DNA of 64,000 nucleotides from Shigella phage phi25-307. Positions 15,150-59,420 of this stretch are shown here, one piece after another. The translations under genes and the position numbers were made by a program. The notes under the pieces were generated by a model. It was not told the origin of the DNA and searched no databases. It worked only from the letters and a program-made list of their open reading frames with translations. The first letter of the stretch is position 1. Each line of letters starts with the position of its first letter. The stretch lies in sequence record MG589383; one strand, written 5' to 3'.

Positions 15150-15836
15150 TTAGAAGTCGTGAGTAGAATCGGCTTCCATTGCAATAACATAACTTACTTG
15201 AGAGCTTTCAAACTTGGCTGCAACTTTATCACCAGCTCCCCACAACATTACTTTATAGTTACCTGGCTGGATTTTCATATTAGCCATATTGATTACGAAG
15301 TTAAAATTGTTAGAACCGTCATAATCGGTAAGAGTCAAAGAATACTTAGGACGAGTTAAGCCAGAATCTTCAACTTTATTATAGCCGTTGATAACAATTT
15401 TACCATCTTTATTTGTAATAGCAATTGTATCAATCTGAAGACCACGTGAAACTCGAAGCAATTGTTGAAGGTCTTCAGCTTTAATTTCAGTAATCACAGA
15501 AGCCACTGGGAATTGAATTGGCTTATTAGGAAAAACAATGGTGCTCTTGTCAGCGGCAGGCCAATAAACCGTGGAACGTGTATCTGCAATTTTAATATTG
15601 CCATCGGTGTGCATCGAAATTTCAGCATCATCAGACACTAGACTCAAAATGCTTAAGAAGCTATTCAAATCATAAAGTGCTACGTCAAAATCAATTTCAT
15701 CAGAGATATTTGCTTCCGCATAAGTGGTGCCATTAACTGCACGAGTCATAATAAATTTACCTTGACTCAGCAGAATGCCGGAGTTAATAGAGGCAAAGTT
15801 TTTCAGAATAGCGATAGTATCTTTAGACAGTTTCAT
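15150..15836 (-). CDS. 45: gp45 sliding clamp
   Basis: MKLSKDTIAILKNFASINSGI... collinear with T4 gp45; internal ATG at 15836 used. Confidence 0.9.
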   Translation of the reverse strand: MKLSKDTIAILKNFASINSGILLSQGKFIMTRAVNGTTYAEANISDEIDFDVALYDLNSFLSILSLVSDDAEISMHTDGNIKIADTRSTVYWPAADKSTIVFPNKPIQFPVASVITEIKAEDLQQLLRVSRGLQIDTIAITNKDGKIVINGYNKVEDSGLTRPKYSLTLTDYDGSNNFNFVINMANMKIQPGNYKVMLWGAGDKVAAKFESSQVSYVIAMEADSTHDF

Positions 15837-20524: not shown

Positions 20525-20734
20525 TTATCTCATTAAATTAAAATAAAAACGTCCGTCCTCTTCAATACAGAACTCATACTCAACCGGAGTCCCATTTATC
20601 GAAAATGACACGTCATGTGGGTTCAAAGGGTCGATGTCAAAATTAATTTTAAATTCACGACCCAACAGTTTTACCAAATAAGGTATTGCTTCGTCAAAAG
20701 GTTCTTCTAAGTAGTTAGAGATGTCAATTGTCAT
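20525..20734 (-). CDS. hypothetical protein (about 70 aa)
   Basis: start trimmed to internal ATG so it does not overlap gene 55. Confidence 0.4.
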
Positions 20735-21281
20735 CCTCATATAAAAAATCCAAACTAGGCGAATCGCTAACAACTTCCTTCTTTTCAGCCCCAGGAGCTT
20801 TATAAGCGGATTCTTCATAATGCGTCATTTTATCGTAGATGTCTTGAATAAACGTTTCATCTACCAACGCTACCATATCATCGTCATGACTGTCGTAGAC
20901 ATTATGAACGAAGTAACTATATTTCTTTGCAACTTCCTTACGTTCTTTTTTGATACGTTGGACAAAAGCATTAAAACAAGCTCTAGTTATGTATGCATGT
21001 GGGTTATTGTACTTAGTTTCGTCGAAATTATGAAGTCCCTTAATAGAGGCTTCAATCCCATCTGCAATCATCTCCTGCTTCCAAGACTGGGTATATCCTG
21101 AAAAGTTGAAACGTTTGGACAGGCCTTCGGCGATAAGCATAATTGCTAAACCGATTGTATCATTCTGACGAATAATTTTGTTTGGGTCTTTATTATTTAA
21201 GAGCTCCTTTTTCCACTCGATTATAGCGGCGAGAAGCTCTTTATTATTCACATAGTTATTTTTAGGTTTTTGTTCAGTCAT
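20724..21281 (-). CDS. 55: gp55 late-transcription sigma factor
   Basis: 185 aa; ...NYVNNKELL...[55 protein letters not shown]... matches T4 gp55. Confidence 0.95.
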
Positions 21282-26813: not shown

Positions 26814-27283
26814 TTTAAACTCTTTCTAAGCTGCTTTTTGAATGAAGCTATTAATTGTGTTTTGGTATCAGATTCATTATATTCAAATCCTCTTTGAAGC
26901 ATCTCAGCCATCATTTCCTCTTTACCTAGTCTTGAGAACTCTTTAGTTTTGTCTGGAACAAAATTAGGATGGATATTATTATCAGAATAATCTTGTTTCA
27001 AATAAGCAAGAAGAGCTTCAAGCCATTCGAGGTAGTCGACATCACGTCCTTTAAGACCAGAACGGTTGAACTTATGCTTCATTTGACCTTCTGCTGCGTT
27101 GCACAGATTACAGAGTAACCCACGAACTCTACCGGCTTTTGGCCCGTTTAATTCATGGTCGTGGTCAAGATGGTTACCTTGAACATCAGGGTCTAATTCA
27201 CGGTGGCAAATAGGACACTTACCATTCTGTGCATCATAAAATTTTTGTTTTTCTTCTTTATATTTTGCGCCTGATAATAACAT
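26810..27283 (-). CDS. 49: endonuclease VII (Holliday junction resolvase)
   Basis: 157 aa; CPICHREL...HLDHDH...LCNLCN zinc/His motifs as in T4 gp49. Confidence 0.9.
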   Translation of the reverse strand: MLLSGAKYKEEKQKFYDAQNGKCPICHRELDPDVQGNHLDHDHELNGPKAGRVRGLLCNLCNAAEGQMKHKFNRSGLKGRDVDYLEWLEALLAYLKQDYSDNNIHPNFVPDKTKEFSRLGKEEMMAEMLQRGFEYNESDTKTQLIASFKKQLRKSLK

Positions 27284-27318
27284 GATAAACCCTTACCTTA
27301 AATAGATAAGGGTATTTA

Positions 27319-27744
27319 TTAACTTAAACGTCTTTCTAAATATTCAATGTATTCTGCGGCTGCTTGCATCAGATTACCTTCATAGCCGTCGTTATTTTCT
27401 TGTCCGGCTAATTTAGCTAATGCATAAGAAATTCGTTCACCTTCGAATTCACCAAGTTTACTACCTAGCACATCCGCAATATCAGCCGAATCAATTTCTT
27501 CGAGTTCATCTATTGAATGGGATTCCCAGAAGCACCAAAGAGAAGTATCACGGTCATAGATGCAAAGTTTCTCACCTGTGTTCAACAACACTTCGATAAT
27601 GCCATGGGCACCATAACCATCTTCGGTAGTAGTACCAATTACCTTGATGATCGTATCTTTCTTTAATTCAGGAAACTTATCTTGGAGTTCTTCGTCTTCT
27701 TTAACAATTTTGAACCATTTACCGCGAGTTTCAGAAATATTCAT
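27319..27744 (-). CDS. hypothetical acidic protein (about 141 aa; start uncertain)
   Basis: ORF; internal ATG chosen, alternative upstream start possible. Confidence 0.4.
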   Translation of the reverse strand: MNISETRGKWFKIVKEDEELQDKFPELKKDTIIKVIGTTTEDGYGAHGIIEVLLNTGEKLCIYDRDTSLWCFWESHSIDELEEIDSADIADVLGSKLGEFEGERISYALAKLAGQENNDGYEGNLMQAAAEYIEYLERRLS

Positions 27745-35089: not shown

Positions 35090-35120
35090 ATTTACCTCAA
35101 GTTAATGGTTATTTATCTAC

Positions 35121-36110
35121 TTATTTATAGTAAGAATTATGATTTTCGAGATAGACTTGTTCAAGGAAGTCATCCCAGAAACTCATATCTACTTTTTGTT
35201 GCATGCCGTTCTTGGCAGCTTGTTCTGATGCTTGTTCAACTTGGTCAACGATATCTTCTAGGAATTCTTGTACAGTTTTAAATGTATGTTTACCAAGCTT
35301 AACATCGAGAATAAATGGAGCATCCTGAAGTGGGTAAACCAGGTCGCCTGTTTTGTAAATTTCCAATAATTGAAGTCCACCACGACATGCATGACTCAAT
35401 GCTTTCCAGTCAATACCTTCGTTAGCTTCTGCCTTACGAGCACGTTCACCATAGTTCTCTTCCAGTTTAACCAGGATGGCATTGAACTCTTTATTGGTTA
35501 ACGTGTCTTGGAATTTACGGTCTAACAGATTATAGAATGTTTGCTTACCTGTTTTCTCGTTTTCAGTTTCAATCCACGAAGCAAATTCACCTACGGGCAG
35601 AACATTCTTCATATGTGATAAACGAATTACTGCACCATTATCAAAGTATTGTCCCCATTCATTAGAACGTTTAAGGGCTTGACGAAGAACAGCCAGTCGA
35701 GAACCCTTGACGCCGTATTTAGAAGCTTGCTTACGAACATACCCTAAATAAGATTTCATGTTAGTAGTATAGAAACGAGACCTGTTGTCTTGAATATACT
35801 TCCACACGTCAGGCAAATCAGATTTAACTACTAAACTTGGTGGAGTGTGAAGCATATCTAATGCGACGGTTTCACCATCCGCAGCTAGTTTAAAGAAATA
35901 TTTGAGACTATACAACTCATGGTCCACGTCGTCTTTTGTGTTCTTAGAAGATGTGTTATTCGTGTTCTTGCTCATATGTTCTTTAACGTTACCGGTCAAG
36001 ATGTCACGAGCATGAGGGACGTAAATTTCTTTAAAATCAACGTCAGATTCAGGAGTAGACGTTCCATAAAGGTGGCTACCAAAGTAGCCTTTCATAATTG
36101 TTTTCATCAT
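35121..36110 (-). CDS. nucleotidyltransferase-fold protein (329 aa)
   Basis: N-terminal YFGSHLYGTSTPESDVDF = GS...G...TPxSD[IV]D Pol-beta-type NTase motif. Confidence 0.6.
   Translation of the reverse strand: MMKTIMKGYFGSHLYGTSTPESDVDFKEIYVPHARDILTGNVKEHMSKNTNNTSSKNTKDDVDHELYSLKYFFKLAADGETVALDMLHTPPSLVVKSDLPDVWKYIQDNRSRFYTTNMKSYLGYVRKQASKYGVKGSRLAVLRQALKRSNEWGQYFDNGAVIRLSHMKNVLPVGEFASWIETENEKTGKQTFYNLLDRKFQDTLTNKEFNAILVKLEENYGERARKAEANEGIDWKALSHACRGGLQLLEIYKTGDLVYPLQDAPFILDVKLGKHTFKTVQEFLEDIVDQVEQASEQAAKNGMQQKVDMSFWDDFLEQVYLENHNSYYK
35122..35129 (-). promoter_or_regulatory. late promoter TATAAATA
   Basis: exact T4 late -10 consensus on minus strand about 33 nt upstream of ATG at 35089. Confidence 0.5.
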
Positions 36111-38281: not shown

Positions 38282-38488
38282 TTAGCCAGTATTTATTTTT
38301 CGCCTTTGGACGGCCTTAACATCTGTGAGGTATTTTTCCAGCTTGCGCTTGCGTGTATAATCAGCTTTAGAACCAGTTTGACGGATATCCTCGTTTAAAT
38401 GAGAAATAGAATGTCCTAATTCTCTTCGGATTTCATCCAATTGGGTTACAGTAAGATTACGAAGTTGTTTTTCGTTTAATTGCTGCAT
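38282..38488 (-). CDS. hypothetical protein (68 aa)
   Basis: ORF. Confidence 0.45.
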
Positions 38489-38515: not shown

Positions 38516-39097
38516 TTATAACAACCCTGTCAAATCATTCCAATGCTTCCGGCATAATGACACATATCTATCAGTATCACCAATTTCAATTTGACTGCCA
38601 TCTGTAATTGGAAGTCCGTCTTCAGTGACTCTAGCTACCATTGTGGCCTTTTTACCACAATGACAGACACCTTTAAGTTCAACAAGCTTATCGGCAATAG
38701 CCATTAATGCTTGAGAACCTTCAAATAGATTACCTTTAAAATCTGTTCGTAGTCCATATGCCATTACCGGCACATTGTATACGTCAACAATACGACTAAG
38801 TTGATACACCTTTTCAGTAGTTAAGAACTGAGCTTCGTCAACAAATACACAATGAATATCCTTTTGTGCTGTAGCCCATTTATAGAATTCAAAGATATCC
38901 ATGTCTTTTGTAATTATATTGGCGTCCTGACGAATACCAATACGAGAGACTATTTCACCTTTTGAATCGCGAGTATCAATAGCCGGTTTAAGAACTAATA
39001 CACCCATGCCACGTTCTTTATAGTTATGGGCGGCAGTCAAAAGAGAAGCAGATTTTCCAGCATTCATTGCTGCATAAGTAAAAATTAAACTCGCCAT
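38516..39097 (-). CDS. tk: thymidine kinase
   Basis: 193 aa; P-loop AAMNAGKS, VDEAQF, C-terminal CxCG...C..H zinc motif. Confidence 0.9.
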   Translation of the reverse strand: MASLIFTYAAMNAGKSASLLTAAHNYKERGMGVLVLKPAIDTRDSKGEIVSRIGIRQDANIITKDMDIFEFYKWATAQKDIHCVFVDEAQFLTTEKVYQLSRIVDVYNVPVMAYGLRTDFKGNLFEGSQALMAIADKLVELKGVCHCGKKATMVARVTEDGLPITDGSQIEIGDTDRYVSLCRKHWNDLTGLL

Positions 39098-46141: not shown

Positions 46142-46423
46142 CTATTTTTCTGAAGCGCCTGAAATATATTTTTCAAGACGTTGTTTCATCAACGAGCCGT
46201 TCTTAGCGATTTCTTCTGGTTTATCGCACATACGCAACAAGGCTTCAAGCTTAACGATATCACTGGTGCGCTCAAATTTGCGAGTATCTATCTTACTAGC
46301 AAGTTCAGAAATACGTGCTAATAGACTTTCAGCTTCAACCAAAGCTGCACCTAGCTTAGTTGCAAATGTGTCAGTAGCTTCGTTAAGAATAGATTCTGAT
46401 AAAAATTCACTATATGTTTTCAT
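46142..46423 (-). CDS. internal-protein-like capsid-targeted protein ([13 protein letters not shown])
   Basis: CTS leader at internal ATG 46423. Confidence 0.55.
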
Positions 46424-46908
46424 ATATACGCTTTCCAAGTTCCTGTTTTAAATGTCGAGATTACGCGTTTCGCGCGATTAGGTGTCTGACGATACCATTT
46501 AGATTGGGCTAGATTTACTGCCGCTTCGTCCCAACGTTTCTGTTGAAGCATACGAAGAGAATTAGTAAAACCAGCGACGCCTGCTACACCCATTTGGAAG
46601 ACCATATTGACCAATGCACATCGACGAACTGCATCTAAAGAATCATATACCGGTTTAAGTTTAGCATTACCCAAGATTCCGCGAACAGCTTTATCAACGT
46701 CTTCATTAAATAACTTTTCAGCCTCATCAAGGGTAATTGTACCGTTGCATTTACGTCCGATCATTCTGTCAAGTTCAGCTTTAGCTACGGCTAAAGACGG
46801 GTTCTTTGTTACTAAATGACCTATGCCAATCGTCCAAAAGCCTTCAGTGTCTTTGTATAAAGTCAGTCTAAGACCTTCGTCATTACGAAGCATTTCAAAT
46901 ATATTCAT
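46420..46908 (-). CDS. e: lysozyme (endolysin, T4 e)
   Basis: [27 protein letters not shown]... matches T4 lysozyme with catalytic E11/D20/T26 context. Confidence 0.95.
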
Positions 46909-46912
46909 AATA

Positions 46913-46932
46913 CCTCCCACGTTTATAGGAGG
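46913..46932 (-). promoter_or_regulatory. hairpin sequestering the lysozyme RBS, with a late-promoter-like TATAAACG in the loop
   Basis: minus strand CCTCC-TATAAACGT-GGGAGG-TATT-ATG. Confidence 0.45.
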
Positions 46933-46942
46933 TATTTATTAC

Positions 46943-47416
46943 TTATAGGATGGTAGTGAGCACCTTATATAATGATTTGCCCATTACATATTCCCATTGA
47001 GAAGGTTTAATTAAAGCGAATGCATCAAATTCAGGAATCTGTCGTCCGTCTGGGAATGTATGATAGGAATTACAAACACTGTTTCTGAATTGCTCGTGCT
47101 CTACAGGGATGGTATATAGGAACAGATGAATATTCTTATTGTCTGAGTAACGATGTTCACCTAGGTCTTTCAGGAAGGCAGGGTCATATTGTGTAAACCC
47201 AGTTTCTTCTTCGCATTCACGAATAGCTGCTTCAATAGGAGATTCACCGGGCTCGACACGACCTTTAGGAATATCCCACCGATGAGCTAAAGAACCTTTA
47301 GGACGAGAACCAGTTACACGCCCCATGAATAATTCTTTATCTTCGGTAAGGAAAATAATACCAGCTGATAGTTCTTTCACTTTATTTTTCTTACTCATCA
47401 TCTCAAATTCCTGCAT
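46943..47416 (-). CDS. nudE: Nudix hydrolase
   Basis: Nudix box GRVEPGESPIEAAIRECEEETG. Confidence 0.85.
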   Translation of the reverse strand: MQEFEMMSKKNKVKELSAGIIFLTEDKELFMGRVTGSRPKGSLAHRWDIPKGRVEPGESPIEAAIRECEEETGFTQYDPAFLKDLGEHRYSDNKNIHLFLYTIPVEHEQFRNSVCNSYHTFPDGRQIPEFDAFALIKPSQWEYVMGKSLYKVLTTIL

Positions 47417-48202: not shown

Positions 48203-48232
48203 CTATAACATAGTCCTATCATGTTGTAAACA
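48203..48232 (-). promoter_or_regulatory. early promoter (GTTTAC-18-TATAGT)
   Basis: ggactactataaca ... gtaaac. Confidence 0.5.
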
Positions 48233-58598: not shown

Positions 58599-59420
58599 TT
58601 AAGATTTCCAAACAGTATTCGCAGAGAAACGTTTTCCTTTTGACATAAACTGCTGAGTAGGTAACATGATTATGTTAGCCCAGTCTTTAGGAGCTATTTC
58701 TGTTATTGTTCCTCTAATGTGGCCTGGCAGGTATGCTTTAATCATTTTGTCAGCACCTTGAAATCCTTTCACCTTGCTCCAGTCTATCTTCAACTTTGTG
58801 TTATTAGTAATAGTAGTTGTGCTAGCATATTGCTTCAGCAATTCTTCAAGAAACTGTTGTCGTGCTTTAGGTGGGATATAGTGCAAGTTTAACCCATACA
58901 TCAAATTATGTTTACCTAATCCTAAATAAATAATCAAAGGATATCGGTCCCAGTACGGCAGAGTATCTTTATGTTTAGCATCATACACGTAAGTATAAAT
59001 TTTGCCTGGCGTAGGCTTGACTACTTTATGACCTTTTACACTTTTCTTAATTGTTTCAACAAACCACTTAGATGATTTGTTGTTTACTGCTGCGCCTTCA
59101 TTTCTAATCTTTTCTCGTATTGAACTGCGAAACGAGTTTATCATCAGAAGTTGACGTTCTTGCTTATTGAGTTTATTTTTAGGTTTAGATTCAAGCGTTT
59201 CAATTTTCTGTTCAGTTTTAATAGCTGATGCATATTTAGACATTGCAGACTTAAACGTCGAGTATTTTATTCCTTTTGATTCTGCAAATGCTTTTGCAGT
59301 GATTCCTTTCTCTTTAGCTTTCTTGTATTCTAATCCTACCTTAATCCATTTTCTTTCGTTAATAGACCTTGCGATCTTAACGACTTGTACCCCTTCAGAT
59401 ATAACTTGGAATATGCTCAT
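58599..59420 (-). CDS. 2: gp2 DNA end-protector protein (by position and size)
   Basis: 273 aa, basic; between 3 and 4. Confidence 0.65.

Follow-up and report, generated by a model that had tools for sequence, protein, structure and literature searches.

A probable Mosigvirus counterpart of the T4 gene e translational switch in Shigella phage phi25-307, with a candidate late promoter overlapping the 5′ arm of the leader hairpin

The leader of the lysozyme gene in Shigella phage phi25-307, analyzed here within a stretch of 64,000 nucleotides from sequence record MG589383 (the window), raises the question of whether its ribosome binding site (RBS) is hidden by a hairpin on long transcripts and, in that case, from which late promoter an mRNA escaping this hairpin would be initiated. 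The control system of the T4 gene e leader is said to have been described by McPheeters et al. 1986 (NAR 14:5813). As set out in a 2010 review (PMC3014915), long early transcripts of T4 e form an inhibitory structure, lysozyme synthesis is lowered about 100-fold, late 5′ ends have been mapped, and two late promoters are reported to be in use; the same review describes similar e-leader hairpins in related phages, where the DNA that encodes the 5′ strand of each contains a T4-type late promoter, and RB69 is missing from its lists of phages with no structure or with no gene e. Both the switch itself and its occurrence among relatives of T4 are already known, and the importance of the present case lies mainly in annotation, that is, in the description of a textbook T4 post-transcriptional control in a close relative. 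The observed sequence, the fold, the homology to T4, the conservation of the geometry between the promoter box and the anti-Shine-Dalgarno (anti-SD) and the energetics make it likely that the T4 gene e switch has its Mosigvirus (RB69-type) orthologue in this element, with AATAAATA as late promoter and a start near 46927. The original prediction, which had assigned the late promoter to a different box, TATAAACG, in the loop, was very probably right on the general mechanism and wrong on the box.

The window belongs to an RB69-like T4-type phage of the genus Mosigvirus, with 99.4% identity to S143_2 and 98.1% to RB69 (megablast). Gene e, which encodes a T4-type lysozyme (endolysin) of 162 amino acids, occupies 46420–46908 on the minus strand according to the ORF list, with its ATG at 46908–46906; sequence comparison gives it the N-terminus of the T4 protein, MNIFEML, in accordance with the earlier naming of this ORF as a lysozyme gene, now specified as the T4 gene e homologue, and 100% identical proteins occur in Mosigvirus-type phages, with a homologue present in 1,482 phage records. 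The longer version of e in the ORF list, starting from a GTG at 46920 (MGGIMNIF...), lies inside the 3′ arm of the hairpin and was rejected as an ORF-caller artefact, in view of the homology to the T4 N-terminus. A separate discrepancy concerns the RB69 GenBank record AY303349, where gene e is annotated at 65200–65673 (L002 2284–2757), from the internal Met6 (ATG at L002 2284); the T4-homologous start, MNIFEM..., is found at L002 2269, with GGAGG before it, and the start at Met6 is, as judged from the sequence, probably a mis-annotation.

Upstream of e, also on the minus strand, lies nudE (e.1; 47416–46943, from the ORF list and tblastn), coding for a Nudix hydrolase, and RB69 NudE matches the window at 47401–46946 with 98% identity (tblastn). 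The nudE stop codon, TAA, is at 46945–46943 and the hairpin begins 6 nt further on, the nudE–e gene order being common to the window, T4 and RB69. Sigma-70-like sites are present upstream on the minus strand, for example at 48230–48202 and 49525–49497, as consensus matches only. Two trans-acting components of late transcription are also encoded in the window: the late sigma factor, gene 55, at 20727–21281 on the minus strand (tblastn with RB69 gp55, 99.5% identity), and the gp45 sliding clamp at 15153–15836.

The minus strand from 46950 to 46906 reads tccTATAAGTAATAAATACCTCCTATAAACGTGGGAGGTATTATG and is laid out as tcc-TATAAGTA-ATAAATA-CCTCC-TATAAACG-T-GGGAGG-TATT-ATG, the parts on the RNA being CCUCC (46932–46928), UAUAAACGU (46927–46919) and GGGAGG (46918–46913), followed by UAUU and the AUG; the string CCUCC...GGGAGG-UAUU-AUG and the coordinates previously given for it are correct on this strand. 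The RNAfold minimum-energy structure is a 12-bp helix, A46936–U46925 with G46920–U46909, including two G·U pairs. Taken alone, the element has a ΔG of −16.3 kcal/mol; when folded in an 81-nt context, it retains this 12-bp helix as the centroid, at −15.1 kcal/mol, with z = −2.9 and one of 200 shuffles as stable. Its 5′ arm, AAUACCUCCUAU (46925–46936, minus), carries the anti-SD CCUCC, which corresponds to positions −5 to −1 of the proposed promoter; the folds close on a tetraloop, AAAC (46921–46924, minus), and the 3′ arm, GUGGGAGGUAUU (46909–46920, minus), holds the Shine-Dalgarno (SD) sequence of e, GGAGG (46917–46913). All five SD bases have a P(unpaired) of 0.00 in read-through RNAs of 141 and 291 nt. 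The burial of the SD in the 3′ arm of a stem, as first proposed, is therefore reproduced by the folds, but the stem has 12 bp rather than the 5 bp described. Likewise, the placing of TATAAACG in the loop holds for four of its bases, but three others pair in the 5′ arm and the last one starts the 3′ arm.

A stable GC-containing hairpin located just past a stop codon may also suggest a terminator, or an mRNA 3′-end stability element for nudE, without any translational control. This explanation is hardly credible here: the GC-rich stem plus U-tract of an intrinsic terminator is lacking, the tail after the stem being AUGAAUAUAU with no U-tract, and the terminator scan did not report the hairpin or any other terminator-like site between nudE and e. 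Moreover, in every relative it is the SD of e that forms the 3′ arm, and the helix tracks this SD and not the nudE stop; in Jiaodavirus, where the gene upstream carries no nudE annotation, the helix is still present. No Rfam match with E ≤ 1 was found in 46700–47200.

Comparison with T4 points instead to the sequestration of the RBS. The T4 leader between nudE and e, ttTATAAATAccttcTATAAATActtaggaggtattATG, aligns base for base with the window gtAATAAATAcctccTATAA--ACgtgggaggtattATG, and both share the location between the two genes, the SD GGAGGUAUUAUG, the outer helix AAUACC.../...GGUAUU and a late-type box that adjoins the anti-SD and from which an identical +1 is predicted. The sequestration of the SD, the sequence and position of the box, and the orthology to the T4 element are thus all found in the window, and the T4 lysozyme-type control proposed in the original prediction agrees with a leader orthologous to that of T4, where read-through RNA sequesters the RBS and late RNA initiated within the hairpin leaves it free (T4 alignment; PMC3014915). 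Some differences are nevertheless evident. T4 e has two perfect TATAAATA boxes, whereas in the window the upstream one is an A(−13) variant, AATAAATA, and in place of the in-loop one there is the degenerate TATAAACG; opposite the T4 in-loop TATAAATAC the window has TATAA--ACG in the MAFFT alignment, which looks like a 2-nt AT deletion relative to T4. The stem also differs, with 12 bp, a 4-nt loop and −16.3 kcal/mol in the window versus 11 bp, an 8-nt loop and −13.3 kcal/mol in T4.

The late-promoter consensus is reportedly that of Christensen and Young. In the published geometry, TATAAATA is located at −13 to −6 (PMC1524935), and position −13 has been described as ‘poorly conserved’ in RB69 and others (PMC1524935); the 50 late sites of T4 are perfect or single-deviation, with two exceptions, and A replaces T at −13 in 9 of them (PMC2988020). 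For the scoring of candidates, a matrix from −17 to +8 was built from the late-promoter predictions of Nolan et al. 2006 for RB69, 31 in all, which were rebuilt from the RB69 genome and re-anchored on the box. These sites comprise 23 TATAAATA, 4 AATAAATA and 4 other single deviations, and none of the 31 deviates at both −7 and −6. Judging from these sequences, A(−13) is a legitimate late-promoter variant, and the commonest accepted one.

In the window, the proposed gp55-type late promoter is AATAAATA at 46940–46933 on the minus strand (−13 to −6), which aligns with the upstream TATAAATA of T4 and whose last four bases double as the outer section of the 5′ arm of the hairpin. It differs from TATAAATA only by the A at −13, and both gp55 and gp45 are encoded by the phage, in keeping with its inclusion among the late promoters. 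Its score, +5.2 bits with the RB69 matrix, is borderline, since the weakest leave-one-out training site reaches 5.7 and 214 RB69 positions score at least as high; this low value is largely due to the C-rich CCTCC spacer at −5 to −1, which is the anti-SD and is needed by the hairpin. Late promoters are usually A/T-rich at these positions, according to the RB69 matrix, and the C-rich spacer of AATAAATA may be seen as a compromise imposed by the anti-SD, a feature shared with the RB69 promoters of gene 49 (ccctt) and soc (cacct). The RB69 list of Nolan et al. 2006 contains no late promoter near e among its 31 entries, the nearest being at 58753 and 72830. The RB69 AATAAATA site, at about 65713–65720, scores just below the weakest sites of that list.

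The in-loop box TATAAACG (46927–46920, minus) differs from TATAAATA at two positions, as noted originally, and these are the last two, −7 and −6. In its favor as a functional late promoter, giving translated transcripts without the 5′ arm, it aligns with the second, in-loop and perfect TATAAATA of T4, where two late promoters are reportedly used (PMC3014915), this in-loop box of T4 type is annotated as a promoter in a Tequatrovirus record, and TATAAACG is retained in all five Mosigvirus-type leaders compared. This retention, however, is explained by the low divergence of these phages together with the participation of its bases in stem pairs. With the RB69 matrix TATAAACG scores −19.0 bits, the level of random sequence, with 78,445 RB69 positions scoring at least as high; its double change is not represented in any RB69 site, and its copies in the window, 4 observed versus 3.6 expected, are at chance level. 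In addition, the +1 predicted from TATAAACG is G46914, inside GGAGG, which would leave a 6-nt leader, GGUAUU, where just the GG remains from the SD, so that a transcript from this box would carry a truncated SD and not the exposed RBS originally envisaged. Among the leaders compared, the in-loop TATAAATA occurs only in those of T4 type, and the loop box is absent from the other genera compared. With two deviations and a start that would truncate the SD, TATAAACG does not belong with the late promoters, and its use as such appears very improbable.

A third near-match, TATAAGTA (46947–46940, minus), deviates from TATAAATA only by the G at −8, and its score of +4.4 bits (293 RB69 positions score at least as high) is near that of AATAAATA, which could make it the late promoter instead. 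Its predicted start, at 46934, retains 10 bp of the stem, and opening of the RBS would still cost 14.2 kcal/mol, which means that the product of TATAAGTA would be silent. The box is missing in the Mosigvirus ESCO47 and in every other genus compared, and it overlaps the nudE stop codon, from which the similarity is probably incidental. TATAAGTA is probably not functional, and its role as the late promoter of e is scarcely probable at all.

In the case of AATAAATA, the −13 to −6 geometry places the predicted late start 6 nt past the box, at 46927 on the minus strand (plus or minus 1–2 nt), and since the box directly adjoins the anti-SD, initiation at about this position would deprive the 5′ arm of its anti-SD core. 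The predicted RNA lacks nine of the twelve bases of the 5′ arm, including the entire anti-SD, and conserves the SD intact within a 19-nt leader. No mapped transcript 5′ ends for RB69-type phages, and no usable modern T4 TSS datasets, turned up in the literature searched. The cost of opening positions −12 to +3 was computed as 15.9–18.5 kcal/mol for the read-through RNAs of the window and 4.4 kcal/mol for the RNA from 46927; the corresponding values in T4 are 15.1–15.5 kcal/mol for read-through, 4.3 for the upstream promoter P1 and 0.5 for the in-loop P2. The near-equal costs of the window and T4 P1 indicate that the window reproduces the energetics of the experimentally validated upstream promoter of T4. 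The late leader (46860–46927, minus) is still partly closed, because the SD pairs weakly with codons 9–12 of e (GGGAGGUAUU with AAUGCUUC), and the T4 P1 leader has an equivalent residual structure. The T4 P2 leader, by contrast, is open and essentially unstructured, and this second route appears to have been lost in the window.

The conservation of this arrangement was evaluated on e leaders gathered from 54 IMG/VR loci and from named GenBank phages, which gave 22 distinct T-even-type leaders from Mosig-, Tequatro-, Gapriver-, Karam-, Jiaoda- and Marfavirus and from JS98-like contigs. In all 22, (T/A/G)ATAAATA directly adjoins an anti-SD at −5 to −1, in the versions CCTCC, CCTTC, CTCCT, CCCCT or CCTCT, and the predicted +1 is the next base; the SD is paired in each of the read-through folds, whose energies run from −10 to −24 kcal/mol, and the helix is lost in each late leader. 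In the MAFFT alignment of 19 distinct leaders, covering at least six genera, ATAAATA and the following C are invariant, and the loop and the upstream flank vary freely. The SD core is paired in all 19, with the pairs counted from the minimum-energy fold of each leader and anchored on its SD, as MAFFT sets the arms of the Karam and Jiaoda types one base out of register. Extra pairs lengthen the helix towards the AUG in leaders of the T4, RB69 and Gaprivervirus types, where the AAUA of the box itself is used, and towards the loop (UAUC/GAUA) in those of the Karam, Jiaoda and Marfa types. Only one two-sided compensatory change was detected, U–A to C–G with the SD GGGGG in Gaprivervirus, and this thin support from covariation can be attributed to the constraint that the SD exerts on the helix core.

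The same comparison bears on the possibility that RB69-type phages have no dedicated late promoter for e, and that the hairpin on RNA started further upstream is relieved in another way, for instance by endonucleolytic cleavage within the stem or 5′ to it, or by translational coupling, with ribosomes that terminate at the nudE stop melting the stem. The published RB69 predictions, with nothing near e, and the borderline score of AATAAATA would be consistent with it, and the nudE stop (46945–46943) is near enough for a terminating ribosome to touch the outer stem pairs. In T4, however, the stop-to-hairpin geometry is the same and early mRNA is still repressed about 100-fold (PMC3014915). Furthermore, ATAAATA is invariant even where it is unpaired and outside the helix, as in the Karam-, Jiaodavirus and Marfavirus types, which argues for a promoter function and not for a structural role and is hard to explain otherwise, and the abutment of the box on the anti-SD is strictly conserved. 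A leader without its own promoter is, consequently, an unlikely explanation, and a T4-type switch driven by AATAAATA accounts better for these data.

To assess the specificity of the architecture, all (T/A/G)ATAAATA boxes of either strand were scanned for a −5 to −1 spacer that pairs with an SD just before an ORF. In the window, 2 of 15 real boxes had it, as did 1 of the 792 decoy 8-mers matched in composition (Fisher p = 0.001), and in RB69 it was present at 2 of 46 boxes and 4 of 2284 decoys (p = 0.005). The two hits were the same in both genomes, gene e and gene 49 only (46940 and 27320 in the window), at least 25-fold over the decoys, and the combined architecture is not due to chance. The gene 49 leader (endonuclease VII, 157 aa; 27245–27320, minus), AATAAATAcccttatctatttaaggtaagggtttatcATG, has a −5 to −1 spacer that pairs with the SD region at −12.9 kcal/mol and, with AATAAATAcccttatctatttaaggtaaggg...ATG and its box at 27320, the same design as e. 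The gene 49 box is TATAAATA in RB69 (published predicted site Pl:47792) and AATAAATA in the window, the leader being otherwise identical, which shows that T and A can replace each other at −13 between orthologous late promoters. In T4, a late promoter within a hairpin operates by the same logic at gene 49, soc and I-TevI/segB (PMC3014915; PMC2988022). As at e, the SD of gene 49, soc and I-TevI/segB is sequestered on long early or middle RNA and the late RNA lacks the 5′ arm; the genes are different, the helix sequences unrelated, and I-TevI adds autorepression of the promoter. The rule of an anti-SD at −5 to −1, followed in six or more genera, may therefore serve as an automatic switch finder, gene 49 being recovered with it too.

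Taken in the order of the infection, the proposed mechanism would operate as follows. Prior to replication, early and middle transcripts from upstream would run through nudE into e, and in this read-through RNA the 12-bp helix would pair the anti-SD CCUCC with the SD GGAGG; with the SD hidden, ribosomes could not start, and no premature lysozyme would be made. After the onset of replication, RNA polymerase with gp55, gp33 and gp45 would use AATAAATA (46940–46933), within the DNA for the outer half of the 5′ arm, and initiation about 6 nt downstream, near 46927, would give an mRNA without the anti-SD, so that the SD would become accessible and lysozyme would be produced late. We infer the activity of AATAAATA, the exact start, the early read-through and the silence of the long RNA. 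The nudE stop lies only 6 nt before the helix, and a ribosome that terminates there could partly open it.

With regard to annotation, three corrections emerge: AATAAATA, which overlaps the 5′ arm, and not the in-loop TATAAACG, is most likely the operative box of RB69-type phages, the published RB69 late-promoter list is without an e site, and gene e is started at Met6 in the RB69 GenBank record. A more speculative idea, to which we attribute a low probability, is that RB69-type phages have lost the in-loop promoter of T4, with lower or later lysozyme than in T4 as the outcome, or else that gp55 still uses TATAAACG, giving a near-leaderless GGUAUU-AUG. Were the in-loop promoter lost, e would depend on one promoter only, of the A(−13) type and with a C-rich spacer, and on an mRNA whose opening still costs about 4.4 kcal/mol, and this would represent a lineage-specific retuning of the supply of the lysis enzyme.

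Other late boxes on the minus strand of the window also precede ORFs. One AATAAATA, at 38297, precedes an rI-like ORF (MALRAIAVMAML, 100 aa) by 21 nt, and a TATAAATA at 38520 lies 19 nt upstream of an rI.1-like ORF; the A(−13) variant is thus found in the window at e and rI, which are lysis-related, and at gene 49 alike. At 35117–35129, overlapping tandem boxes, TATAAATA and GATAAATA, are situated 15–27 nt upstream of an ORF of 93 aa with a signal-peptide-like N-terminus, MKKLVIGLFAVM. Outside the T-even-type leaders, Cronobacter phage LPCS28 (Nanhuvirus, L066 200–245) presents the principle in another arrangement, cctcttCTAAATAtaattttagaggaggttttATG, in which an Aeh1-type CTAAATA box is located within the 5′ arm of an 11-bp stem that sequesters the SD, and a start 6 nt further on would fall just before the SD.
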